Below, piece by piece: positions 1 through 42,077 of a DNA stretch of 42,339 nt. Origin of the DNA: Eubacteriales bacterium. Its GTDB lineage: Bacteria > Bacillota > Clostridia > Oscillospirales > CAG-272. Location of the stretch: NCBI GenBank assembly GCA_045589735.1, contig JAZNPQ010000009.1:1-42339 (forward strand), given 5' to 3'. The notes beneath the pieces were generated by a model. That model saw only the letters and a program-made list of their open reading frames with translations. It made no database searches and was not told where the DNA came from. A program made the translations under genes and the position numbers. Position 1 is the first letter of the stretch. Each line of letters opens with the position of its first letter.

Positions 1-280
1 GAATGGCAACACACGAGCCGCGACTGCGGGAGCGAGAAGGCAGGGCGCCGATGCTGACTTCACTTTTTTGAAAGCCTCCGACCCTGCCGCGCAAAGCTCT
101 GTATAGAAATTCAACGGTTGCGACCGAGCAACCGTTGAAAGATAACCAAAAACCTAAGACATACCCCTTGTTTGAAGTTTTTTGAAGTTTCTTAAGGAAC
201 TTTTTGCAAAAAGTTCCTTAAGTGGGGTGTGGGGTGAAACCCCACATAAAGAATCAACCCACCGACAAATCAAAATTTGA
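1..280. mobile_element. MITE-like hairpin-array element, copy A (left part runs off the window)
   Basis: Right terminus caccgacaaatcaaaatttga (260-280) matches the termini of copies B and D. The interior shares modules with B and C: gagccgcgactgcg at 14-27, hairpin caacggttgc/gcaaccgttg at 112-137, a perfect 32-bp palindrome at 191-222 and a GGGG/CCCC hairpin. Confidence 0.7.
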
Positions 281-291
281 AGGGAAATTAC

Positions 292-885: not shown

Positions 886-981
886 TTTTTTCCCCTTTCG
901 TAAAAAATATTACGCTTATATGGTGGACGCAAGAGCGAAAAAATATTCAATACAATAAACGGTTGATAATAAATTTGTAAG

Positions 982-1693
982 TCGAATTTTGATTTATCTG
1001 TGAGATTATGTGGGGCTCTGCCCCATACCCCGCCTAAGAAACTTTTTGCAAAAAGTTTCTTAGGAATCTTCAAAAAACTTCAAACAAGGGATATATTTTA
1101 ATTGTTTGTTTATCTTTCAACGGTTGCTCGAGCGCAACCGTTGAATTTTTGTACGGTTATTTGCGCGTCGAGGTCGAAAGTCTTACTTAAAGTAAAGTAC
1201 GGTTGCGGCGCCTCTGACTATCGGATATGCGCTTCGCGCAAATCCTGTTGAGTTTGCGCAAGGCGCAAACATCTCTCTGCCGCAGTCGCGGCTCGTGTGT
1301 TACCGTTCAGACACACTCACGACGCGACATTACGAAAATATTATTCAATCTAATTTATTGATTTTTGTTTTATTTTACTCTTTAATGTCGCGCAGTGAGA
1401 ACGCCGCAATGGCGAGCGTTTGAGCCCGCGACTGCGTTAGCGACGAGGAGTGCGCGTCGGTTGAAGATGTTGCTTTAAGGTGAATGCGCGCACTCCGTGA
1501 TAAGCTACGTGCTATCCCTCGCCGACCGCGTCCGAGCGGTCGCTGAAAGGTGAATAAATACCTTGAATAAACCATTTGATTTTGAAAGTTTTTGAAGATT
1601 CTTAAGGAACTTTTTTCCAAAAAGTTCCTTAAGTGGGGCGTGGGGCAACGCCCCACTTAAAAAACGAAACTCACCTATAAATCCCAATTTGTT
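982..1693. mobile_element. MITE-like hairpin-array element, copy B (complete, 712 bp)
   Basis: Termini are tcgaattttgatttatctgtg (982-1002) and cacctataaatcccaatttgtt (1672-1693). Read inward they fit CAAATTnnGATTTnnnGGTG. Two roughly 330-bp quasi-inverted arms surround an AT-rich centre. No credible ORF. Confidence 0.75.
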
Positions 1694-1710
1694 GGAGTAT
1701 TCAAGTTATA

Positions 1711-2312: not shown

Positions 2313-4127
2313 TTAAATCATAGAAAGTATCGCTTTTTTTACGTCACCGTACATATAAAGCGAGCCGAGTGCGATTATCGGTCTGCCTGTCTTATTTGCC
2401 CGTTTGAGTGCAGCTTCGACAGATTTTTTTATATCATCGTTTCCTTCTGCGTATATTCCACATTTTTTAAACTCTTCCGCATAAGAGACTGCGTCAAGCG
2501 AACGGGGATTATCGGGTTTCAAGGTAAACGCCGACTCGGCAATGACAGACAACTCACGCGCCATATCGGCGTAGTCCTTATCCTTCATAACACCGCTGAG
2601 CAGAATGACATTTTGATCTCCGAAAAGCTTTTTCACGCAATCGACCGCCGCCGCAATTCCCTCTGGATTATGCGAGCCGTCGATTATCACGAGCGGAGAA
2701 TCCGAAAGCTTTTCGAATCTTCCCTTCCATTCGGCGTTTCGAAGGCCCGTGACAAGTGCGTTTTCGTCGATATCAAGTCCTCTCTTACGCAAAATATCCA
2801 CAGCGCATATAACGTTCGCGGCATTGTGAGGCTGATAAGTTCCGAGTAATTTTATAGAATATTCTTTTCCGCACAGCTTAAAGACTGTTCCGCAAAGGTC
2901 AGTCTTTATTATTTCAAGCTCACTCTGCGGTGTTACAAAAAATTCCGAGCCTTTTTCCAGCGCGACCGTTTTTATTACCTCTGCGGCAGTATCATCCGTT
3001 CCGCCGTACAGTACAGGTGCGCCGTTTTTGATTATTCCCGCCTTTTCTGCGGCAATTTCGGCAACCGTATTTCCGAGAAACGCCGTATGGTCAAGTGAAA
3101 TCCCTGTTATTACCGACATTATCGGTTCTTTTATTATATTCGTTGCGTCAAGTCTGCCTCCCATACCGACCTCAAGCACAACGGGATCACAGGAATTACG
3201 CTCAAACGCCACCATCGCGACCGCAGTTATAAGCTCAAATTCGGTTGGCGCGTCCTCCATTTTATCGGCAAATTCACGCACATACGACGTAATCTCAGAC
3301 AGTTCAGTGTCTGATATGGGAGTTCCGTTTATTGTAATTCTTTCGTTGAACCGTTCAATATAAGGTGAGGTGTAAAGTCCTGTTTTATATCCCGCCTCAC
3401 GTAAAACCGAATCGCACATAGAGCAGAACGAGCCCTTGCCGTTCGTACCCGCGACGTGTATAAATCTAAGTCTATCCTGAGGGTCACCGAGCAGATGCAA
3501 CAGCTCGGTGATACGCTCAAGTCCCGGGCGGCTTCCCGTCCAGCTTACCTTATGTATATATGAAAGTGTTTCCTTGTAATTCATACGTTTGGAATTCCAG
3601 CCGAGGATCTTTCTGCAGCTTCGGTTTTTATATAAAAGGCATATAAGCACTATCTCGATAGGTGCAACGGCAAATAAATAAAGCGGTATTCTCCAAAGGA
3701 TCGACCAGTGATAAAAAGTAAAAAGACCTACTGATTTTATTATCACAGAGCCGAAAAGATGAGCAAATATACCCGAAACTATTATCTGCTTGTATCCGTT
3801 TTCTTTTATTATGAATTTTGACACGACACCCGGAATTACGCCCACAATAGCAGCACCAAACGTGACTATGAGGTTAGGCGGATAGACCTGAGGAGATAGC
3901 AGATAGCTTATAAGATCCGACGCAGCACCTATCATAGCTCCTCCGACAGGTCCTAAGATCATACCCGAAATTATTATCGGCAGATGCTCAAAGGTCACTC
4001 TGAACAGTCCCGCACCGAAATTTAAATAGCTTTTACAAAAAATACCGATAACGACGCTCATAGACGTAAGCATTGCGGCAAGCGTCAGCATTTTGATGCT
4101 TTTAAAGACAAACGAATGTTTTTTCAT
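2313..4127 (-). CDS. folC: Fusion of a folate ECF S component (FolT-like, N-terminal ~180 aa) with folylpolyglutamate/dihydrofolate synthase (FolC)
   Basis: One uninterrupted 604-aa ORF. The N-terminus is a membrane domain (RVTFEHLPIIISGMILGPVGGAMIGAASD). From MNYKETLSYI onward it is typical FolC (HVAGTNGKGS P-loop). The internal ATG has no good RBS. Confidence 0.8.
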   Translation of the reverse strand: MKKHSFVFKSIKMLTLAAMLTSMSVVIGIFCKSYLNFGAGLFRVTFEHLPIIISGMILGPVGGAMIGAASDLISYLLSPQVYPPNLIVTFGAAIVGVIPGVVSKFIIKENGYKQIIVSGIFAHLFGSVIIKSVGLFTFYHWSILWRIPLYLFAVAPIEIVLICLLYKNRSCRKILGWNSKRMNYKETLSYIHKVSWTGSRPGLERITELLHLLGDPQDRLRFIHVAGTNGKGSFCSMCDSVLREAGYKTGLYTSPYIERFNERITINGTPISDTELSEITSYVREFADKMEDAPTEFELITAVAMVAFERNSCDPVVLEVGMGGRLDATNIIKEPIMSVITGISLDHTAFLGNTVAEIAAEKAGIIKNGAPVLYGGTDDTAAEVIKTVALEKGSEFFVTPQSELEIIKTDLCGTVFKLCGKEYSIKLLGTYQPHNAANVICAVDILRKRGLDIDENALVTGLRNAEWKGRFEKLSDSPLVIIDGSHNPEGIAAAVDCVKKLFGDQNVILLSGVMKDKDYADMARELSVIAESAFTLKPDNPRSLDAVSYAEEFKKCGIYAEGNDDIKKSVEAALKRANKTGRPIIALGSLYMYGDVKKAILSMI

Positions 4128-4215: not shown

Positions 4216-4310
4216 ACAAAGCGGGATGCAGGCAACCGACCGCGCTACGCTTCGTCCGAATGACAACTCCCCGTCCACTCGTCACTTAACGCCGACTGCC
4301 TTACTCTTTT
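4216..4310 (-). promoter_or_regulatory. THF-I riboswitch
   Basis: The minus strand reads AGAGTAAGGCAGTCGGCGTTAAGTGACGAGTGGACGGGGAGTTGTCATTCGGACGAAGCGTAGCGCGGTCGGTTGCCTGCATCCCGCTTTG. This closely parallels the E. siraeum THF aptamer (GAGUAG..GCGUUAAGUG..GGGAUGUCGUCAC..ACGAAGCG..AGCGCGGU..UGCAUCCGCUC). A TATAAT box lies just upstream. An anti-SD segment (tacctcctttttt) lies downstream, opposite the RBS. Confidence 0.85.
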
Positions 4311-4429
4311 ACGAGTATATTATACCACACACAGGCAAAATGTCAATAGCGTTTTTCTGTTTTTTGGGGTTTTTTAAATATTTCACCATAAGCTCCCGCG
4401 GCGGCGGAGACCGCCGCGGGGTGGGAGAT

Positions 4430-5092
4430 TTATTGTGTGCTCTCTTGATTTATTATTTTTCTCACAGAAATACAGTACTCCGTATATTGTTGCAGTATGC
4501 TAAAATCGGGATCTTTTGTCAATACCAATTGAAAGTATAAATTTTCATTGATGACAACAACATATAAATGTGAATATTTCTCATGACAGAACAGTTCCGG
4601 TATATTCTCATGAGGCTTGTATGCGGCTTTATTGGGATCATAAGCCGAATCTGACATATTTAGATAAATAGCTTCACTCGAACCTTCAGAACGAGGTATT
4701 GATATTTCAAAGCTGCCGTACTCATTATCCCAATTTTTTTCTTTATATTCTTCATAAACATCAGGTGATAATTCGCGCATCCGATATGCTATATAGTTTA
4801 TCTTGAAAGGAAATTCCGAGAAAACCGTTTTTAAAATTTCTTTGCTTATATTCCCTCCCATAAATTCACAATCTTCGGGACATTGAGCAATTATCTCATC
4901 AATTGATGCTCCGGATATGGATGGCTGTATATAATCAACCCAGTCCTCGACGCTTGGTATCGTGCGGTTAGTTGTATCGGCTGTAGAATCCTGAAAGCAG
5001 TTTGTTGATTCTCTTTCATCCGTGTCACAGGATACAAACACTATTAAGAATATTAACAGAGCACACATCGAAACTAAAAAGATTTTTTTCAT
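4430..5092 (-). CDS. Hypothetical lipoprotein
   Basis: 220 aa. Signal peptide with a lipobox-like FVSC. RBS agagg. Starts 14 bp after the stop of the upstream gene. I recognise no family. Confidence 0.6.
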   Translation of the reverse strand: MKKIFLVSMCALLIFLIVFVSCDTDERESTNCFQDSTADTTNRTIPSVEDWVDYIQPSISGASIDEIIAQCPEDCEFMGGNISKEILKTVFSEFPFKINYIAYRMRELSPDVYEEYKEKNWDNEYGSFEISIPRSEGSSEAIYLNMSDSAYDPNKAAYKPHENIPELFCHEKYSHLYVVVINENLYFQLVLTKDPDFSILQQYTEYCISVRKIINQESTQ

Positions 5093-5106
5093 AAATGTCT
5101 ACCTCT

Positions 5107-8100
5107 TTAATATTTGTTTTTATTGGCGGCAATAGTATTGATACAGTTCTGACACCAATATGTACTGGGATCATTGATATCAACAGGGGCATATCTTTGT
5201 GGATCATTTTCCATAATACAAGTAATATCATCACTTGCTGCGTGATGCCCTATTATGCCATAAGTGTGTGATAATTCATGTGCCAAAACCAGCACGCATC
5301 TTTGCAGATTGTCGCTGTTTTGGCCATCTCTCATTGATATTATCGGATAATCATAATCTGACAATCCTGCTGTAGCGTAATTATGTCCATTAGAATCGCA
5401 CATACAAGAATAATGTCCGGTATATCCTATTCTGATAGTATTTGATGGGATTCCCACTATCAAATCGTTCCTATGTCTAATCATACTTTTGCAATGTGTA
5501 TCGTATTCAAATCCGTTCGTGGTATTATTTGTGTATGGAGAATGCCAATATTCCAATAAGCATTCATCGTCTGATATACAAGTACAAGGATTGTTTATTC
5601 CTGTGCTGGGACAGTTATCGGCAGCAGAAGTATAGTTAACCGCTACCGTTTGATTTGAAATTAAATGTATTCCGTGTATTTCTTCAAAAGCTGCCGCAAC
5701 TTTGGGGAAATATACATTTAAAATATTAGAAGAAATACGCGCTTTTGTAGTGACATCATCTTCTGTACCGATTTTATTTCTCGTAATAAATCCGTTATCA
5801 TAAAAGAAATCCACATAGACACTATACGGAATATCGACTGTTATGATATAATACCATATCCAAGGTGCATTTTGATATGTTATTCCTATTTTGAATTGCC
5901 CTGGCTTTAGTATTGTTAACAATCCCGTTTCACTGTTTATTGTTGCCTTATCTGTTGTATTATAATCGACACTTTTTACAGAGAATGTAACTGGACCATT
6001 TCTGCCAATAGTTGAACTATACATACCCGCCGAACAATAGTAAGAATTTCCGACCGATAGGGTTGCTGAAAAAGCATTTAAAAACGTGCCATCAATTGCC
6101 TCTCCGGTATAAGGTTCAAGAATCCATTTTCCGTAGCTGTTTGTTGCGGTAGGATTTGTAACCACCGCCGAGCCGTTTGTTGAATTTGACGGTGCAGTAA
6201 TGTAATTTCCGATATCATCAATTCCGTTTCGTATAGTATAATAATTTCCGGACACAGATATTATCCAAGACTGTCTGAATGCTATATCCGGAATTGCTTC
6301 GGTAAGTGAAATGCCCTCTGTAACAAGCGGAACTGAATTTCCTGACAGCGAGGATGTAATTCCTTGTCCCGAATTTGTCATTGGACGGATACTGTAGTGA
6401 TGCATATTATCAAACGTGTCAAGGTAGGTTAGCTTAAATAGCTGATTCCTGTTATTATCTGTCGCTGTTCCCGACCATTGCTGTATTGTGGTTCCGCTTG
6501 CCGTGTTTCCGTCGGTAACGTCAAGATACAGTCCGTTTGCTACGTTTTTGATCTTATATACTCCGTTCGCTATTCTCGGTTCTGTATAGGTTATGGTAAA
6601 ATACGGTCTGTAACTTGCCGATGATTCGTAAGAATTTAGTATAACGGACGCATTTGATCCCATCATATATTTTATGGCGATACCATAGTGATTATTTTCG
6701 GGTAAAGTGAAATATCCGTACCACGATTCGGCAGCATCTGTTATATCAAAGCTTATCCACTTAGGAGATGTTGAGTACGCACCCTCACTTCCTGATAGTA
6801 CAGCAGCCGACAGCAAAGTCGTTGACATGCTGAGGTTTGGCTCTTGATTTGCCCAATACCAAGTAAGAGTATTTTCGCCCCAAGCAGTTGTTACTTGGTA
6901 AGCTCCTGCAGAAATATATCCGGAAGTTACGTTGCTATAATAATAATATGACATATTAAGATTTACGGAAACAAGATCTGCATATGTAGGAAGTTCATAA
7001 TTATACATTTTTATAAAAATCGTCCTTGTGGAAGATAGCCATAGGGTTGTTGAGTTTCCGTAATTTTCTCCTACATTTTGCGAATCTACATAGGTATCTG
7101 CCGAACCTGAATTTTGTATAGTCGGATCTATTACGACAGGAAACGCTCTATCATCGCTGTTTATCCAATCTTTATCTGCCGTCACTGTGAGAATATATTT
7201 GTCTTCACCAGAAGATACAAGAGTATAACTTACATCATATGAAAAATTATGCTCGGCATCGTACATATACGGGGCGGGAATGCTGTATTTTTCTTCATTG
7301 CTTTCGGCATCAATTATGCTTATACTTCCATTCTCGTTCAGTATAGCATACAGTCCTGACAAAGTTATTTCAAATTTGTAAACATAGCTGCTCTCAGGGG
7401 CTTTTACGATTATGTTTTCCTTAACATCGTTACCGCTCAATACATATTCGATATCTGTATTACTTCTTACATTAGAATATGTTACGAAGGAATCATTGTT
7501 TACAAGCTTTGCTTCTTCTATTGTATCCCATAATATTTTTTCGTTTCTTGGCGTAGCATTATTGACCGAAGTGACCGCCTCAGATTCCGAATCGACAGTA
7601 GAATTTGTTGACAGTTCGGGAGTTATCGGAGTTATTTCCGATATAGTATCGTCAACAAAGGCCATTGATATTGAATATCCGTTTTCGTTTAAATTCCAGA
7701 GAGTGCTATTTGGCTTATATGTTTTGGAAAATGACACTCTAAGATCGTCAGTCACGTACATGGAATTATTTTTGACTGTTGACAAAGTAAGGGTATTGTC
7801 AATATCCTGCCATTTTCCGTTACTATCTTTTCTGTGAACGGCAGAGCTGTATATAATAGCTTGTACCGTTCCGTCGGGCATTATAAAATGCTTGACGTTT
7901 TCTTCTCTTCGCGAGGTCATTTCACGTATAGTCTCGTTTTGTTCAACATAGTCCTCCTTCGGTTGAATAGAATCGAACATTATTTCAGGGATGTTAGTGT
8001 TGGGAACTGTTGAAATCTCATTGCTTTGTGTAGCTGCTTGCGTGTCCGTCATATCTTGCGCTATTGCAGTTACGGGCATTGCCGTTAATACAAAAATAAC

Positions 8101-8142
8101 ACTGAGAATGATCGCGACAGTCTTTAAATACATCTTTTTCAT
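5107..8142 (-). CDS. Large secreted multidomain protein: DNRLRE-like domain, ricin-type beta-trefoil lectin, Ig-like domain and a C-terminal metzincin-like Zn peptidase
   Basis: 1011 aa with a signal peptide and a strong RBS (aaggagg). QxW lectin motif (TIQQWSG..NQLFKL). Zn-binding-like motif HELSHTYGIIGHH followed by CIME. Confidence 0.7.
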   Translation of the reverse strand: MKKMYLKTVAIILSVIFVLTAMPVTAIAQDMTDTQAATQSNEISTVPNTNIPEIMFDSIQPKEDYVEQNETIREMTSRREENVKHFIMPDGTVQAIIYSSAVHRKDSNGKWQDIDNTLTLSTVKNNSMYVTDDLRVSFSKTYKPNSTLWNLNENGYSISMAFVDDTISEITPITPELSTNSTVDSESEAVTSVNNATPRNEKILWDTIEEAKLVNNDSFVTYSNVRSNTDIEYVLSGNDVKENIIVKAPESSYVYKFEITLSGLYAILNENGSISIIDAESNEEKYSIPAPYMYDAEHNFSYDVSYTLVSSGEDKYILTVTADKDWINSDDRAFPVVIDPTIQNSGSADTYVDSQNVGENYGNSTTLWLSSTRTIFIKMYNYELPTYADLVSVNLNMSYYYYSNVTSGYISAGAYQVTTAWGENTLTWYWANQEPNLSMSTTLLSAAVLSGSEGAYSTSPKWISFDITDAAESWYGYFTLPENNHYGIAIKYMMGSNASVILNSYESSASYRPYFTITYTEPRIANGVYKIKNVANGLYLDVTDGNTASGTTIQQWSGTATDNNRNQLFKLTYLDTFDNMHHYSIRPMTNSGQGITSSLSGNSVPLVTEGISLTEAIPDIAFRQSWIISVSGNYYTIRNGIDDIGNYITAPSNSTNGSAVVTNPTATNSYGKWILEPYTGEAIDGTFLNAFSATLSVGNSYYCSAGMYSSTIGRNGPVTFSVKSVDYNTTDKATINSETGLLTILKPGQFKIGITYQNAPWIWYYIITVDIPYSVYVDFFYDNGFITRNKIGTEDDVTTKARISSNILNVYFPKVAAAFEEIHGIHLISNQTVAVNYTSAADNCPSTGINNPCTCISDDECLLEYWHSPYTNNTTNGFEYDTHCKSMIRHRNDLIVGIPSNTIRIGYTGHYSCMCDSNGHNYATAGLSDYDYPIISMRDGQNSDNLQRCVLVLAHELSHTYGIIGHHAASDDITCIMENDPQRYAPVDINDPSTYWCQNCINTIAANKNKY

Positions 8143-8461
8143 AATTTCCTCCTTAATAGACGTTTGTCGTGGTCGTTTATTGTGTTTTTTGTTCCTGCGC
8201 CGCGTATCGAAACAGCTTTTAATGCCTCGACAGGCGGCGTTTTATTTGTGTGTTCATAGTTATCTCCGCCTTTCTTTCGTGTTTTTCATAAAAAAGCACA
8301 CAGATGCCCTATAAGGTTTCTGTGTGCCGTTGGTTATTATATTTTATGTCTCTATTACCGCCGGCACGTATGTCGGGTGAGGTGTTGTCTCTTCTTTTGA
8401 CTTATTTTAGCATAATAAGGAATTTTTGTCAATATATTTTCGCATAAAAAATCTGAAAAAT

Positions 8462-8854
8462 TTATTTTTTCGGATTTTCAATCATATAAACGCTCTGATC
8501 GTCTATATTTATGTCGGGCAAAAATATCGGCGGTATATTTGCGCTGACGCTTATCGACGTCACAATAGCCTTAACGCGCGGGAACAGTATCTTATAAGTT
8601 GTCTTGTGAATATCGTCCTTCGGCGAATCGTCCTCACTTATAAAATCACCGACGACCTTGACCTTCAGTTTGAAGCTTTCGGGGTCTTGCTTATTAAATA
8701 TCTCGGAAACCATTTCGCCGCGGCAAAGTCGGTTCTGCGAAAAGCCGAGATTATACGAGCAACGGCTTGTCAGCTCAAATCGCTCCGTCTTTTTTAAATT
8801 ATTTTCAAAAACTATTTCGGTTGCCGAATAGTTGAGTAATCTTACCTTTGCCAT
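8462..8854 (-). CDS. SecB-like chaperone family protein
   Basis: 130 aa. The C-terminal segment ILFPRVKAIVTSISVSANIPPIFLPDINI resembles the SecB LFPYAREaIs..gFPPl.L.PiNF region. Confidence 0.5.
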   Translation of the reverse strand: MAKVRLLNYSATEIVFENNLKKTERFELTSRCSYNLGFSQNRLCRGEMVSEIFNKQDPESFKLKVKVVGDFISEDDSPKDDIHKTTYKILFPRVKAIVTSISVSANIPPIFLPDINIDDQSVYMIENPKK

Positions 8855-8958: not shown

Positions 8959-9694
8959 CAAAAATTAATGCCGTCGGTGGGATTGATATGTGGGGCTCTG
9001 CCCCATCCCCCGCCAAAGAAACTTTTTGCAAAAAGTTTCTTTGGAATCTTCAAAAAACTTTAAACAAGGGTTAATTTAAGGTTTTTATTTATCTTTCAAA
9101 GCTTGACCGTGTCAAGCTTTGAGGGTTTATACGGCACTTTACGCGGCAGTGGCCGCCGGATATGCGCTTCGCGCAAATCCTGGAGAGTTTGCGCAAAGCG
9201 CAAACTCTCAGGTCTTACTAAAAGTGAAGTCTGCATCGGCGCCCTGCCTTCTCGCTCCCGCAGTCGCGGCTCAAACGCACGCCATTGCGGCGTTCTCACT
9301 GCGCGACACGAAAGAACAATGTAAATTTTAAAATTTTTGAACAGATAATATCGCTATTATGTCGCGTCGTGAGTGTGTCCGTATGGCAACACACGAGCCG
9401 CGACTGCGATAGCGACAAGTCGGGGTGCCGTGGTGAACCTCACTTTTAGCAAGACCATCAGCCCCGACGTGCTAAATACCGTGCTATCCCTCACCTACCG
9501 CGACCGAGCGGTCGGTGAAAGCTGTATAAATACATAGGATAAATCATTTATTTTTGAAAGTTTTTGAAGATTATTGGGGCGAGATGTTTGCGCTCTGCGC
9601 AAACTCTCCAGGATTTGCGCGAAGCGCATATCCGATTCTTATGTGGGTGTGGGCAACGCCCACGAATCAACCGATCGTTAAATCCCAATTTGTT
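8959..9694. mobile_element. MITE-like hairpin-array element, copy C (736 bp, left terminus degenerate)
   Basis: The right terminus ttaaatcccaatttgtt ends at 9694. The left end is caaaaattaatgccgtcggtg. Outer arms are collinear with copy B, but the core (9259-9408) is inverted relative to B. Confidence 0.7.
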
Positions 9695-9705
9695 AACATA
9701 AAAAA

Positions 9706-11903: not shown

Positions 11904-12069
11904 AAGGAGAACTAGCGTGAAAGTTTGTCATGCTGTTGAGAAAAGTTCACGGATCACGCTACCAAATTTAAACTAAAAATGGGGCCCAACCCATTTTTGT
12001 TTGCAAAGCAAACACGCTTAAATTTTATTATTTTTTGTGCCGCCGCATGGCGGCGGAATGGAGATTACA
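11904..12069 (+). repeat. 166-bp structured intergenic repeat, copy 1
   Basis: Homologous along its whole length to the reverse complement of 19231-19397. Runs from aaggaga-tagcgtgaaag to gtgccgccgcatggcggcggaatggagattaca. Contains 3-4 hairpins. Confidence 0.8.
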
Positions 12070-12543
12070 ATGAAACCCGAAAGATACAACGAATTTACAC
12101 TGCTCATTGAAGGAACACATAAGCTCATACAAAAAATAAAGCTCGACCGTTCAAAGGAATTCGGAATAAAGGGCGTTCACGTATTCTGGCTCTGCCGTCT
12201 GCTCGCACAGCCCGAGGGAATGACATCTGCAGAGCTTGCGGCGCAGAGAATGATAGACCGTTCTCTCGTTTCGCGTGAGATAGACGAGCTTCTTGACAAG
12301 GGCTACATACAGGTTGACAAAAAAGCGGTTGGAAAGAGACGAAGCTACAACAGCATTATAACCCTCACACCCGAAGGGATCAAGGTTGCAAAGAAAATAT
12401 CGGGAATGGCTATGGAGATACAGACCGAAGCCAACAAAGGCATACGTGAATCCGAGCTTGTTTCCTTCTACCGCACCCTGACAACGATATACAATAACCT
12501 TTACGACTATTCTGAGCAGTACGAGGAAGAGGTAAACGCATAA
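12070..12543 (+). CDS. MarR family transcriptional regulator
   Basis: Winged-helix region (MTSAELAAQRMIDRSLVSREIDELLDKGYI). Start placed at MKPERY, with GGAG 6 nt upstream. The track ORF starts at a GTG inside a hairpin. Confidence 0.75.
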   Translation: MKPERYNEFTLLIEGTHKLIQKIKLDRSKEFGIKGVHVFWLCRLLAQPEGMTSAELAAQRMIDRSLVSREIDELLDKGYIQVDKKAVGKRRSYNSIITLTPEGIKVAKKISGMAMEIQTEANKGIRESELVSFYRTLTTIYNNLYDYSEQYEEEVNA

Positions 12544-17084: not shown

Positions 17085-17153
17085 TGTTTTACAAATAAAT
17101 TTAAATTTTAAAATATTTTTGCCACCTCTGTAGTGGAGAAATGGAGATTGATT

Positions 17154-18068
17154 ATGAAACTTTCGTTCGGTTCAGCTTTTCAACAAGCAGGAGAAAAACA
17201 CTCTCACCTTGAGCTTCTCAAGATAGCCAAGGAAATAGGCTTTGGATGTTATGACCTCGACCTCGGTCTTGCGGGAAGTATGACAGGTGAAGACAGAGAT
17301 TCCAATGCTGAGACTTGGAAAAATTTGTTTGAGGAGGCAGGGGTTTCGGTGACTCAAACTCACGCGCCAAAAAAATCGTTTGAGATCGTAACGGGATGTC
17401 TCTTTTTCTGCCAAAAGGCAGGCTTCCCAAACGTAATTGTCCACCCTATTGCCACCCCTAATAATACTCGCGACGAGTTCTGGGAAAAAAACATAACACG
17501 AATAAAATCTTTTATTCCGTACGTTGAAGAAACGGGTGTCGAGATACTCGTTGAAAATATCGGTCAGTATACAGACCCGTATTTCTTCTGGTCAGGCAAG
17601 GATCTGCGCGCTTTTCTTGACGAGATAGATCATCCGCTTATAAACGCTTGTTGGGATATAGGTCACGCCAACCACTTCTACTATATGCACGTCGGCGGAA
17701 GCCAGTACAATTCCATAATCACTCTCGGCGACAAACTCAAAGCGATCCATGCTCACGACAATATAGGATACTTCACGCACTACACGCAGGGGGTCATTGA
17801 TATGCATATGATGCCCTATGCGACAGGCGGTTGCTCCGTAAGCTGGGATGCTGTTCTGCAAGGTCTTAAGGATATAAACTATAAAGGCACGTTCAATTTT
17901 GAAACTCCCGGTGTATTCACATCAAAGAGGGCGGTAGATTTCGTTTATAACGGTGAGGTCGTAGACAGACTTAAGAAGCCTTCCTTTGAGGTTTGGAAGG
18001 CAAGCACGCAGCTTCTTCACGCAATAGGTAAATCTATGCTTGAAGAGTATGATATGTTTGAGGAATAA
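17154..18068 (+). CDS. Sugar phosphate isomerase/epimerase-like TIM-barrel protein (paralog 1)
   Basis: WDIGHANH and HAHDN motifs. Roughly two-thirds identical by eye to the next gene. Confidence 0.7.
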   Translation: MKLSFGSAFQQAGEKHSHLELLKIAKEIGFGCYDLDLGLAGSMTGEDRDSNAETWKNLFEEAGVSVTQTHAPKKSFEIVTGCLFFCQKAGFPNVIVHPIATPNNTRDEFWEKNITRIKSFIPYVEETGVEILVENIGQYTDPYFFWSGKDLRAFLDEIDHPLINACWDIGHANHFYYMHVGGSQYNSIITLGDKLKAIHAHDNIGYFTHYTQGVIDMHMMPYATGGCSVSWDAVLQGLKDINYKGTFNFETPGVFTSKRAVDFVYNGEVVDRLKKPSFEVWKASTQLLHAIGKSMLEEYDMFEE

Positions 18069-18101: not shown

Positions 18102-19025
18102 ATGAAGCTTTCTTTAGGTTCGGCTTTTCAGCAGGCAGGAGAAAAGCACACACCGCTTGAGCTTTTGAAGCTTTGCTATGAAATCGGTTTCAGAGGCTAC
18201 GACCTCAGCATCTCTGCAAATATGGCAGCAGATGAGGATCGGAATGCTAAGGCGTCATATTGGAAAAGTTTGTTTGAAGAATCGGGGCTTGAAGTTACAC
18301 AGACTCACGCACCGTTCAAAAACAGTGAACCTATGTTTGACGCGGTCAGCGGTACTTTGTATTTTTGTGAAAAGGCAGGCTTTAAAAATACCGTTATTCA
18401 CCCTGTTGGATACGACGGAAACTCACGCGACGAATTTTTTGAAAACAATCTAAAATACGTACGCTCTCTTATCCCTCACGTTGAGGCGACCGGAACCGAG
18501 CTTCTCGTTGAAAATATCGGTCAGTATACAGACCCGTATTTCTTCTGGTCGGCCAAGGATATGCGTGAATTTCTTGATGAGGTCAACCATCCGCTTGTTA
18601 ACGCTTGTTGGGATATAGGTCACGCAAACCATTTCTACTATATGCACGTCGGCGGAAGTCCGTACGATTCGATAGTCACGCTCGGAGACAAACTTAAAGC
18701 AGTCCATGCGCATGACAACGTCGGATATTTCACCCACCACAAGCAGATAACCATCGATATGCACATGATGCCCTATGCCTCAGGCTTCTGCTCTGTTAAC
18801 TGGGATGCCGTTATGCAAGGGCTTAAGGACATAAACTACAAGGGTACGTTCAATTTCGAGACCGGTGGAGTATCATCTGTAAAGAAAAGACCTGAATTTG
18901 TATATGACGGAGAGGTGGTTCACACTTTGGAAACACCGTCGTTTGAGGTCTGGAGAGACGGCACACGTCTGCTTCACTCAATAGGTAAATCTATGCTTGA
19001 AGCATACGGTATGTACGAAGAATAA
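18102..19025 (+). CDS. Sugar phosphate isomerase/epimerase-like TIM-barrel protein (paralog 2)
   Basis: Tandem paralog of 17154-18068. Long identical blocks such as LVENIGQYTDPYFFWS and ACWDIGHANHFYYMHVGGS. Confidence 0.7.
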   Translation: MKLSLGSAFQQAGEKHTPLELLKLCYEIGFRGYDLSISANMAADEDRNAKASYWKSLFEESGLEVTQTHAPFKNSEPMFDAVSGTLYFCEKAGFKNTVIHPVGYDGNSRDEFFENNLKYVRSLIPHVEATGTELLVENIGQYTDPYFFWSAKDMREFLDEVNHPLVNACWDIGHANHFYYMHVGGSPYDSIVTLGDKLKAVHAHDNVGYFTHHKQITIDMHMMPYASGFCSVNWDAVMQGLKDINYKGTFNFETGGVSSVKKRPEFVYDGEVVHTLETPSFEVWRDGTRLLHSIGKSMLEAYGMYEE

Positions 19026-19065: not shown

Positions 19066-19230
19066 TTATTTTTTATCTTTCTTTTTCTTTGTTTTAAGTT
19101 GTCTCAATACCGAAAAATTTGCTATTACGTAGGTCGCCATTATAATGATTCCTATGATCAGAAATACGCCAAGCAGACCTATTCCCATATATTTGAGATT
19201 TTCAATAAAATTATAAGGTTCGAATATCAT
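19066..19230 (-). CDS. OadG-like small membrane subunit of a Na+-translocating decarboxylase
   Basis: 54 aa: MIFEPYNFIENLKYMGIGLLGVFLIIGIIIMATYVI. One TM helix and a basic tail. Downstream of oadB. Start placed at the ATG after the repeat-borne GGAG. Confidence 0.55.
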   Translation of the reverse strand: MIFEPYNFIENLKYMGIGLLGVFLIIGIIIMATYVIANFSVLRQLKTKKKKDKK

Positions 19231-19397
19231 AATAATCTCCATTCCGCCGCCATAGCGGCGGCACAACAAAATAATAAAATTCAAATGCGTTCGCTTTGCG
19301 AACAAAAATGGGTTCGGGTCCCATTTTTAATTTGAATTTGGTAGCGTGACAAGTGAATTTCACACACAGTATGATAATCTTTCACGCTAATCTCCTT
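19231..19397 (-). repeat. 166-bp structured intergenic repeat, copy 2
   Basis: Its reverse complement aligns with 11904-12069. It has the same polarity relative to the flanking genes. Confidence 0.8.
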
Positions 19398-27244: not shown

Positions 27245-27388
27245 ACAATCCGAGCCACAAAACCAAACCGCGATTATAGCAAACTCATACCGTCAGGTGA
27301 CTAAACGGTTCACCCCGTGTCGAGTTTTTTCTTCTGCCGTTAGTATAGCATACTATCAAGAATTAGTCAAGCGCCTTCTCTCAACACT

Positions 27389-27422
27389 CAAAATTTGCAT
27401 CGCAGAAGTCAAAGAAAACGCC
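27389..27422 (+). repeat. 34-nt island motif, copy 1
   Basis: caaaatttgcatcgcagaagtcaaagaaaacgcc. It recurs at 28741-28774 and, more diverged, at 33269-33300. Confidence 0.75.
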
Positions 27423-27514
27423 GAGAGAAAAAACAATCTCTACAAGTGTTAACTGTGAGCGATTAAAAATCCCTCATTTTAGAAATAATATTGAGGGAAT
27501 ATTCCCTCAAACCG

Positions 27515-28618: not shown

Positions 28619-28740
28619 TAAAATGAAATTGGGGAACAGCGTATAACGACTATATTGCAAATGTTCCCCCAATGCATATTTTAGGATAGTTCAAAATTGT
28701 GATTATGCATATTTTCGGAAGGCAACCGTCAATCCATACG

Positions 28741-28774
28741 CAAAATTTGCTTCGCAGAAGTCAAAGAAAACGCC
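28741..28774 (+). repeat. 34-nt island motif, copy 2
   Basis: caaaatttgcttcgcagaagtcaaagaaaacgcc. Confidence 0.75.
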
Positions 28775-28865
28775 ACGTGAAAAAAGCCCAAATTTATTTT
28801 CGAAAAAGTGCTGGACTTCCTCTCTCTTCTGTGGTATGTTGTTGTGCTAACAGGAGGTGCAACCT

Positions 28866-32835: not shown

Positions 32836-33192
32836 ATGGAAAACTATATCATCATCGGAATGATTGCCGTCATCGTAGTTATTGCTGTTATTTCAAGCAT
32901 CAAGCACTTCAAGGGCGAGGGCGGTTGCTGTGGCGGTGGCAGCTACAAGCCGAAGCGTAAGAAGCTCTCGGGCATAAAATACACGAAAAAATTCAAGGTC
33001 GGCGGTATGCACTGCGAGCATTGTAAGAATAGGGTTGAAGAAGCCGTTAACGACATCAAAGGTGTTGCAGGCATAGTCGATCTCAAAAAAGGAGAACTGA
33101 CCGTGTCCTATGCCGAGGACGTTGACGATAAAATCATAAAGGCAAAGATCGAAAGAGCCGGATATACGGTTACAAGATTAATAAATCAATAA
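32836..33192 (+). CDS. Membrane-anchored heavy-metal-associated (HMA) domain protein
   Basis: N-terminal TM helix, a GGCCGGG segment, then an HMA fold with GMHCEHC. Confidence 0.75.
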   Translation: MENYIIIGMIAVIVVIAVISSIKHFKGEGGCCGGGSYKPKRKKLSGIKYTKKFKVGGMHCEHCKNRVEEAVNDIKGVAGIVDLKKGELTVSYAEDVDDKIIKAKIERAGYTVTRLINQ

Positions 33193-33268
33193 TTGCATCG
33201 CTGTAACCAAAGAAAATGCCCAACGAAAAAAGCTGAAATCGAAGGAGGTCTGTCCTACGGTCAGCCCT

Positions 33269-33300
33269 CAAAATTTGCATCGCAGTAGGCAAAGAAAAGG
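33269..33300 (+). repeat. 34-nt island motif, copy 3 (diverged)
   Basis: caaaatttgcatcgcagtaggcaaagaaaagg. Confidence 0.6.
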
Positions 33301-33326
33301 GCTCTGAGAAACACTTCTCAGAGCCA
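33299..33326 (-). terminator. Terminator after the island-borne tRNA-Pro
   Basis: Minus strand: ggctctgagaa-gtgt-ttctcagagcc followed by cttttc. Confidence 0.65.
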
Positions 33327-33329
33327 AAA

Positions 33330-33406
<77 letters not shown>

Positions 33407-33428
33407 AAGGTGGTATTTTTCAATTTTT

Positions 33429-33457: not shown

Positions 33458-33560
33458 GAGGAATTGATGATTTTTCGACATTCGGGAGAGCCGAAAAAGT
33501 CAGTGTTTTCAAGGGCTTTCGGCACTTTCCGAAAAATCTGCGCCGAGAACGGTGATTGAG

Positions 33561-33599
33561 TCCCGAACCAAGCGCTCTACCAAGCTGAGCCACACCCCG
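33561..33599 (-). pseudogene. 5' half of a split tRNA-Pro(CGG), from the acceptor stem to the anticodon loop
   Basis: The minus strand reads CGGGGTGTGGCTCAGCTTGGTAGAGCGCTTGGTTCGGGA, then non-tRNA sequence. It shares the 9-nt GTTCGGGAC with the 3' half at 27062-27107. Confidence 0.8.
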
Positions 33600-33614
33600 A
33601 ATTGATACCATAGT

Positions 33615-33678: not shown

Positions 33679-33942
33679 CTTCAAGTATTGCTTCGCAAAA
33701 CTTGACAAAGTTACTTCGTAACTTTTGGGGTTCAAAACCTATCGTCCACCAACACGCAAAAAGCCCCCTCTCTTTTGAGAGGGAGCTTTTTGGTGCCGGA
33801 GACGGTGTTTCTTCAAGTATTGCTTCGCAAAACTTGACAAAGTTACTTCGTAACTTTTGGGGTTCAAAACCTATCGTCCACCAACACGCAAAAAGCCCCC
33901 TCTCTTTTGAGAGGGAGCTTTTTGGTGCCGGAGACGGGTTTC
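33679..33942. repeat. Tandem duplication, 2 x 132 bp, each unit ending in the 3'-terminal ~20 nt of tRNA-Leu
   Basis: The unit cttcaagtattgcttcgcaaaac...aaaaagccccctctcttttgagagggagctttttggtgccggagacgg occurs at 33679 and at 33811. Copy 2 continues into the intact tRNA-Leu. Confidence 0.85.
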
Positions 33943-34011
33943 GAACCCGTACGATATTTTCATATCACGGGATTTTAAGTCCCGGGCGTCTGCCTGTTCC
34001 GCCACTCCGGC
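33923..34011 (-). tRNA. tRNA-Leu (anticodon TAA), type II with a long variable arm, CCA encoded
   Basis: GCCGGAGTGGCGGAACAGGCAGACGCCCGGGACTTAAAATCCCGTGATATGAAAATATCGTACGGGTTCGAAACCCGTCTCCGGCACCA. Anticodon loop CTTAAAA. Confidence 0.85.
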
Positions 34012-41638: not shown

Positions 41639-42077
41639 ACAAATTGGGATTTAAGGGTGCGATTATACACAGAACAACGGTAGGGCGGGGGCTTGCTCCC
41701 GCCGAAACGAACAATTAAGACAAATAATATTTCTATAGACCGAATAAACCTTAAAAATTGTAGGGACAGGCGTCCTCGACTGTCCGCTTCTTTGATATAC
41801 CGCAAATAATATTTTTTGTAATTAAAAATAATTGTTTTTTTATAGAAATAAAATCAAACCAAAGGCATCGCCACGGACAGTCGAGGAGGCCTGTCCCTAC
41901 AGATTTATTTTAATTGTTTGTTTTATTACAGAAATTTTATTTGTCTTAACCGCTCATTTTCGGGCGACCAATGGTCGCCCGAAAGAAAAACGCATAAATA
42001 AACGGGAGACACAATGTTCGCCCCTACAGTGTAATTAAAATAATCCATAAATAACACACCGACAAATCAAAATTTGA
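41639..42077. mobile_element. MITE-like element, copy D (439 bp, same termini, different interior, opposite orientation to B and C)
   Basis: Termini are acaaattgggatttaagggtg (41639-41659) and caccgacaaatcaaaatttga (42057-42077). The interior has its own inverted arms (tgtagggacaggcgtcctcgactgtccg / cggacagtcgaggaggcctgtccctaca) and GC hairpins. Confidence 0.7.

Follow-up and report, generated by a model that had tools for sequence, protein, structure and literature searches.

The window analyzed here is the whole 42,339-nt stretch of a contig from an Eubacteriales bacterium. Near its left end, spoIIR (292-885) was bracketed by two inverted copies, A and B, of a foldback element, with an arm of type II toward the gene on either side (193 nt, 80% complementary). 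If A and B recombined, spoIIR would be inverted. A third copy, C, was found farther downstream, and a foldback element of a different internal family, D, close to the right end. The elements were mapped as follows:

1..287, plus strand: copy A, cut by the window start; it comprises the last 14 nt of the GTGTGT..ACACAC hairpin (hp1), the 14-bp repeat (15-28) and an arm of type II ending in AAATCAAAATTTGA
977..1699, no strand: copy B, complete element, with its core (1281-1436) in the opposite state to C; hp1 adjoins arm II, and the AACGC..GCGTT hairpin (hp2) adjoins arm I
8965..9698, no strand: copy C, complete foldback element; arm II with an AAA-type end and a degenerate terminus, then the core, then arm I with a CCC-type end
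9157..9209, plus strand: M, a palindromic insert of ~53-56 bp in arm II of copy C; also at 9581-9636 (inverted, arm I) and at 1220-1275 (arm II of B)
41639..42077, no strand: element D, a 440-bp foldback with a CCC-type terminus on the left and an AAA-type terminus on the right

The core of copy C was bounded by a perfect 14-bp inverted repeat, CGCAGTCGCGGCTC on the left and its exact reverse complement GAGCCGCGACTGCG on the right. Its parts were:

9259..9272, plus strand: left 14-bp inverted repeat CGCAGTCGCGGCTC, read directly and kept in all aligned half-units
9273..9294, plus strand: hp2, here on the complementary strand; recognized from the sequence and from compensatory changes at alignment pairs 20-25/39-44
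9295..9308, plus strand: left arm of the inner inverted repeat (IR2), CTCACTGCGCGACA; its invariant stem corresponds to pairs 8-13/50-55
9309..9359, no strand: asymmetric AT-rich center of 51 nt, ending in TGCTATTAT, an extended -10-like motif directed to hp1
9360..9372, plus strand: right arm of IR2, TGTCGCGTCGTGA, recognized from the sequence and the half-unit alignment
9373..9394, plus strand: hp1, recognized from the sequence
9395..9408, plus strand: right 14-bp inverted repeat GAGCCGCGACTGCG; crossover mapped to GCGACTGCG and the 2 nt that follow

Further copies were searched with a key of 20 nt, the hp1-based junction between hairpin and repeat, in one genome per species. The scan returned 14 loci, all in one MAG (Eubacteriales, JAZODV01), plus one chance match. 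This MAG was ~92% identical to the window in shared genes, and carried the element at no fewer than 14 loci, compared with the three copies (A, B and C) of the window. When metagenomes were scanned with a degenerate core pattern, only one chance match was obtained (L016, in a high-GC coding region), and viral contigs gave no match, so the family was seen in two genomes only. Nor did copy B find a BLAST match among plasmids and phages. All copies outside the window came from this one MAG, whose repeats were assembled from short reads, so that some of the joins could be chimeric.

A complete copy was a foldback element of 660-730 bp, with two half-units of ~305 nt placed head to head around the AT-rich center. 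The half-unit profile was made from one side of copy B and starts a few bases inside the center; the profile-mapped half-units therefore lay ~40-45 nt apart, the center itself measuring 51-57 nt. In copy C, nhmmer placed the left half at 9314-9209 plus 9156-8965 (minus strand) and the right half at 9354-9572 plus 9636-9698. Paired divergent halves were found in all full copies, and solo half-units at two loci (L007 and L010). From the center outwards, the half-unit consisted of TGTCGCG[YM]GTGAG, then either hp1 or hp2, and then GAGCC(C)GCGACTGCG, which is the 14-bp repeat already recognized in the sequence-only reading. The outer part had a variable stem-loop, a second hairpin, a conserved TTTGAAAGTTTTTGAAGAT block and the perfect palindrome AAGRAACTTTTT/AAAAAGTTYCTT, and its distal end a G-rich hairpin followed by a sharply bounded terminus.

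Save for an extra C or single substitutions, the 14-bp repeat was invariant in 31 of 31 aligned half-units from the two genomes, and is no chance match. For 23 half-units RNAalifold predicted 61 pairs, 22 of them with compensatory changes. The GTCGCG/CGCGAC stem never varied in this set, and the other stems covaried. In this stem, the CGCGAC of CTCACTGCGCGACA is able to pair with the GTCGCG of the outer repeat in the same half. The elements had no conserved ORF and gave no Rfam match at gathering score; at E ≤ 1, positions 886-1743 gave only sub-threshold matches, far below the gathering score of each family. A function as RNA was considered and dropped after a strand test with a weak outcome: the consensus fold had -65 kcal/mol outward vs -54 inward, and the single-sequence energies were equal (-113 vs -110).

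Two arm types were recognized, each with its own diagnostic internal blocks. Type I ended in AAATCCCAATTT (CCC-type), which forms the right terminus of copy C at 9680, and type II in AAATCAAAATTTGA (AAA-type). The termini were ~22 nt long, with the pattern ..CACCGAYAAATC(AAA|CCC)AATTT(G/A), and flank similarity ended within a few bases. One arm of each type was present in 12 of the 13 loci with a complete element, which gives the element a left-right polarity independent of the core.

Against this polarity, the orientation of the core can be read. The sequence-only reading had stated that the core of copy C is reversed relative to copy B, with collinear arms, and our comparison confirmed it. 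Copy B had CGCAGTCGCGGCTC at 1281-1294 and GAGCCCGCGACTGCG, with one extra C, at 1422-1436. Between these repeats, its parts came in the reverse order of those in copy C, where hp2 is followed by the inner repeat, the AT-rich center, the inner repeat partner and hp1. The interior of B (1295-1421) was 77.1% identical to the reverse complement of the interior of C (9273-9394), compared with 56.8% on the same strand. Each of the two interiors matched its own reverse complement at 56-57%, so the same-strand value is at the level of the palindromic background. For the left arms, identity was 74.4% between B and C, vs 60.0% between the left arm of B and the reverse complement of the right arm of C. 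For the right arms, the corresponding values were 68.5% and 64.1% (the latter for B-right against the reverse complement of C-left). The direct repeats D5 and D6 between the outer arms of B and C were 83% and 94% identical. By identity alone the collinearity of the arms is modest, because the entire element is palindromic. It became firm once the arms were typed by their diagnostic blocks and their differing termini (AAATCAAAATTTGA vs AAATCCCAATTT).

Copy A, as also claimed earlier, was in the same state as B, its GTGTGT hairpin being joined to the same arm type. Its arm was identical to the left arm of C at 52 of 53 positions, up to and through the 14-bp repeat. Beyond the repeat, copy A runs into the GTGTGT hairpin and copy C into the AACGC hairpin. 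The two configurations correspond to the inversion of a fixed unit (hp2, center, hp1) relative to distinguishable arms, with the exchange in the 14-bp repeat or within ~2 nt of it.

The same holds across the family. All 14 complete copies had one hp1 half and one hp2 half, and none had hp1 on both sides, although the search was keyed on hp1; the core thus behaves as a fixed unit. Hp1 was joined to arm I, and hp2 to arm II, at nine loci (copy C with its ortholog L014, L002, L003, L004, L005, L008, L011, L013 and L015). The other state, with hp1 on arm II and hp2 on arm I, was found at three loci (copy B, L001 and L012), or four when the visible half of copy A is counted. L009 had type I arms on both sides.

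The place of the exchange could be narrowed down with two markers. The extra C in GAGCC[C]GCGAC goes with hp2, and AGCGA[G/C], just outside the repeat, goes with the arm type, which puts the exchange within GCGACTGCG plus about 2 nt. Arm I of L003 (with hp1) was 99% identical to arm I of L012 and of L009 (both with hp2), and arm II of L012 (with hp1) was 94% identical to arm II of L008 (with hp2). Since almost the same proximal arm can be joined to either hairpin, a single event does not suffice. As a past event the inversion is real, and it is localized to the 14-bp repeat.

Tabulating the core orientation over all copies, as had been recommended, bore out the two states, but the orientation followed the core subfamily. 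Subfamily Y had seven cores, 92-100% identical and all in one state; under a random 50:50 assignment, this has a chance of about 1.6%. In subfamily X (93-99% identical), both copies with two arm types were in the other state than Y, the third member being L009. One locus could be compared between the genomes: copy C and its ortholog L014 had the same orientation and an identical core (150 of 150 positions), with neighboring genes ~8% different. Loci A and B were occupied in the MAG by other element types. As far as the sequences tell, orientation tracks the core subfamily and does not vary among close copies.

Stretches of 94-100% identity are common to the copies, and several MAG contigs end inside elements. 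Both would be in line with an assembly artefact, in which a short-read assembler joined the arms and cores of different copies and so created false states. However, B and C, in opposite states, lie in one 42-kb contig, each within unique flanks, and the independent MAG assembly of locus C shows it in the same state, its core identical. Nor would random chimeras produce a correlation of state with core subfamily. We regard an artefact as extremely improbable.

In our best reading, a transposon-like foldback repeat without coding capacity is dispersed between the genes of one Clostridia lineage, and the segment forms its central tip. We lean toward a MITE-like foldback repeat whose center was occasionally inverted by recombination at its inverted repeats. 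Recombination at the inverted GAGCCGCGACTGCG copies would flip the core relative to the arms, either by intramolecular inversion, or by gene conversion, with the repeats as anchors and another copy, in inverted register, as the donor. Flips would have been few in the history of the family, and the resulting states would then have been inherited and amplified. The two states look like old recombination products, not like a regulated on/off switch, and we infer that the cores are not flipping at present. Several points count against this reading. The 14-bp and inner repeats are invariant while the other stems covary, which fits a protein recognition site. The crossover fell within ~11 nt, with longer conserved blocks available more distally in the arms, and general homologous recombination would not obviously produce such a narrow crossover pattern. 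Finally, 14 bp is short for RecA-dependent exchange.

The perfect, invariant repeats next to stems that vary with compensation, and the confined crossover, also speak for an active site-specific switch. Here, a recombinase encoded elsewhere in the genome would recognize CGCAGTCGCGGCTC and reversibly flip the ~150-bp core at many loci, redirecting an outward promoter. Both states exist, with near-identical arms joined to either hairpin, and the size and the AT-rich center are typical of invertible promoters. In 10 of 14 cores, an extended -10-like motif, TGnTAT(T/A)AT, lies directly next to hp1. It would be a better promoter candidate than the weak one proposed earlier, TTGATT-17-TTTAAT, which is indeed present in copy B (1358-1386), but occurs only in subfamily X. 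The promoter scan called no sigma-70-type site in the core. TGnTAT(T/A)AT, likewise uncalled, had no -35 partner, and a transcript starting from it would need to cross ~300 nt of hairpins. The hp1 side could drive only three of 11 neighboring genes, those pointing away from the element, the other eight having their 3' end toward it. Taking both sides, 14 of 22 element flanks faced the 3' end of a gene, and the arms carried terminator-like hairpins placed for incoming transcription. An IHF-like site, AATCAATAAATTA, was noted by eye in the center, in subfamily X only, and was dropped as unconserved.

Further evidence weighs against a switch that is active today. A serine or tyrosine invertase had been suggested as a search target; with Pfam, no recombinase or transposase domain was found in the 29 ORFs covering the 42-kb window. 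Within subfamilies Y (7/7) and X (2/2) only one orientation each was found, and copy C agreed with its ortholog. All 12 MAG cores were assembled straight through both repeats, with the contig breaks in the arms and none at a repeat. For a dispersed repeat with subfamily-bound orientation, with the same state at L014 and with no recombinase in the window, the earlier idea of a promoter-carrying phase switch is unsupported, and we consider an active switch unlikely. It is slightly less likely still that one recombinase elsewhere flips the cores of at least 12 dispersed copies of a mobile foldback element. If this were true, a transposable repeat would seed the chromosome with portable invertible switches, and the uniform orientation of the subfamilies would be a biased resting state, with flipping still present. 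Should the cores flip today, this uncultured lineage of gut Clostridia would have in the family a mobile vehicle for phase-variable elements, for which the inversion of Correia elements in Neisseria would be the nearest precedent reported.

Known invertons include E. coli fimS, Salmonella hin, the polysaccharide promoters of Bacteroides fragilis (Mpi) and the flgB/cwpV switches of Clostridioides difficile (RecV). In gut bacteria, one recombinase, such as Mpi or RecV, controls several dispersed switches. The core resembles them as a short AT-rich segment found in two orientations and bounded by short inverted repeats, which were present in all copies (perfect at 9259-9272/9395-9408 in C, with an extra C in B). 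Unlike invertons, it is a near-identical repeat at 14 or more loci, located inside a mobile-looking element, and its orientation is fixed within subfamilies and at one orthologous locus. Also unlike invertons, it had no nearby recombinase (in the window), no clear promoter and no consistent downstream gene.

The terminal hairpins of parvoviruses and AAV exist in flip and flop forms, which are exact inversions between the arms of an outer palindrome, and which arise as a by-product when the end of a linear single-stranded genome is replicated. A similar process could act at each copying of the element: a single-stranded foldback hairpin would be nicked and unfolded, its unpaired tip inverted, and each new copy given a random orientation. 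The geometry is the same, with two unlike small hairpins occurring in both orders within a larger palindrome, and the entire element can fold back on itself. In L004, L009 and L015, moreover, one stem-loop variant was present in both arms, which suggests that one arm served as template for the other. However, the element is chromosomal and internal, unlike the viral ends, and its orientation was not randomized among close copies, where this process predicts mixed states (subfamily Y, 7/7 alike). Arms that are 60-62% identical within an element are poor for a clean hairpin, and although the unpaired sequence begins at the inner repeat, the flipped unit extends to the 14-bp repeat. Flip-flop at copying is quite improbable in our view.

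Very unlikely, finally, is a reading of the 150-bp core as a small transposon in its own right, with the 14-bp repeats as its termini, that inserted either way into a preferred target in an older palindromic repeat. Its size and terminal repeats resemble Correia-type elements, and nested insertion is known in the family, M being found at three arm positions. However, neither genome had a core outside the arm context, and no core-less arm pair was seen. The solo half-units (L007, L010) keep half a core on their arm, and are broken at the center, not at the 14-bp repeat. The bases flanking the core repeats are inverted and not direct, so the core has no target-site duplication. An independent small transposon was rejected as an explanation of the core.

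The mobility of the whole element, as assumed in the favored reading of a MITE-like repeat with an occasionally inverted center, was assessed at orthologous sites. These were reached by homology searches from SpoIIR and a 130-aa protein. From the AMP-ligase gene to the 130-aa gene, there were 1353 nt in the window, and 575 nt without an element in L023, with similar distances in L024 and L029; these sites came from a related species and several metagenome assemblies. The flanks of spoIIR in L018, L020 and L021 had only remnants of 40-65 bp, made of the two termini. As in MITEs, there were terminal inverted repeats, dispersed small non-coding copies, and presence or absence at orthologous sites. 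No target-site duplication was found in the copies inspected, where several termini are degenerate and a very short duplication could be missed. An autonomous partner was not found in viral contigs, plasmids or phages.

The ends of the element were also found around other sequences. A relative of element D was present upstream of spoIIR in the MAG (L017), with a third type, E, downstream of the gene. An E-type element occupied locus C in a strain 90% identical. A common pair of ~22-nt termini was found in three or more foldback families that are unrelated inside (the hairpin type, D and E), and these replaced one another at the same chromosomal sites across genomes. Elements of these families were positioned at 41639-42077 in the window, at 1372-1680 and 2380-2669 in L017, at about 1-290 in L031 and at 4623-5020 in L010. 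This pattern suggests a cassette-like turnover between conserved ends.

The insert M was found in three copies, at 94-100% identity, all within the window (blastn), and at three different positions of the half-unit profile. It was internally palindromic (CGGATATGCGCTTCGCGCAAATCCTG..GAGTTTGCGCAAAGCGCAAAC), and was seen neither at the orthologous locus L014 nor at any of the 15 MAG loci. M looks like a very small, recently active nested insert.

Correia elements (CREE/NEMIS) of Neisseria have promoter-like sequences and a central AT-rich site for protein binding (PMC2649163). Their inversion is reported, and discussed as a route to phase variation, in the work of Elbeyioglu et al. (2017), as cited in PMC10969869. 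Like them, the core is a non-coding unit bounded by inverted repeats (~105-155 bp in CREE/NEMIS) with a directional interior, multi-copy, mostly intergenic and with two end-sequence variants. The differences are that there is no sequence similarity, that the repeats are 14 bp long vs 26 bp, and that Correia elements have a TA duplication and a Neisseria host, while the present family had no duplication found and a Clostridia host. Furthermore, the flipped unit is nested in a foldback element of 660-730 bp, with different terminal repeats of its own, larger than the 104-204 bp of Correia elements. The Correia element is the closest described system; with no common sequence, and its defining features lacking in the present family, the relation is one of analogy and not of membership.

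Mosaic intergenic repeats are known as REP/BIME and REPINs in proteobacteria, and as BOX, RUP and SPRITE in Streptococcus pneumoniae (PMC10969869). Chains of hairpin modules that reassort between copies, a location at the 3' ends of genes, terminator-like hairpins and elements inserted into one another are common to them and to the family described here. Unlike these repeats, the present element is much longer, being a head-to-head doublet of ~305-nt units, and has sharp terminal repeats common to at least three internally unrelated families. If the two states are only historical, the family would be a well-resolved case of the evolution of a palindromic bacterial repeat, in which hairpin modules reassort, internal families swap between conserved termini at the same sites, and the center occasionally inverts at a short repeat. 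As a practical warning, scans for inverted repeats with two orientations will flag such repeat families as switches.

The window also had several features outside the foldback elements. A THF (tetrahydrofolate) riboswitch (4217-4310, minus strand, 71 bits) was detected upstream of the gene at 2313-4127. The latter encoded a 604-aa protein in which an ECF-transporter S component is fused to a folylpolyglutamate-synthase-like Mur ligase; in relatives, the two parts are separate genes (8067-8603 and 8618-9892 in L023). A segment of ~4 kb (4373-8463) was missing in the MAG (L014) and in the strain L031, whose orthologous regions keep both flanks collinear. The segment codes for a secreted protein of 1011 aa, which has a ricin-type lectin domain, and for a protein of 220 aa without a Pfam match.

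Another repeat family was represented by an inverted pair of ~140 nt (11943-12081 and 19219-19360), 78-86% complementary and with a AAAAATGGG..CCCATTTTT hairpin. The pair brackets a 7.2-kb block with MarR, two to three paralogs similar to TIM-barrel sugar isomerases, and DegV. This repeat was also found beside spoIIR in L021 (1-152), a more remote relative. Tandem paralogs at 17133-18068 and 18102-19025 encoded xylose-isomerase-like TIM-barrel proteins of 311 and 307 aa, with 300-nt stretches at 81% nucleotide identity.

In the tRNA region, a direct repeat of 127 nt with 100% identity (33679-33805 and 33811-33937, copies 132 nt apart) abutted tRNA-Leu (33923-34011). A partial copy of tRNA-Pro, 42 nt long and 93% identical, lay 193 nt from the gene (33367-33408 and 33560-33601). 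Both are local duplications. A 60-nt intergenic motif was present in four copies (27374-27433, 28726-28785, 33172-33231 and 33254-33313), 67-83% identical and with the pattern ..CAAAATTTGCATCGCAGAAGTCAAAGAAAACGCC..GAAAAAA. Its CAAAATTTG resembles the AAA-type terminus of the foldback elements.
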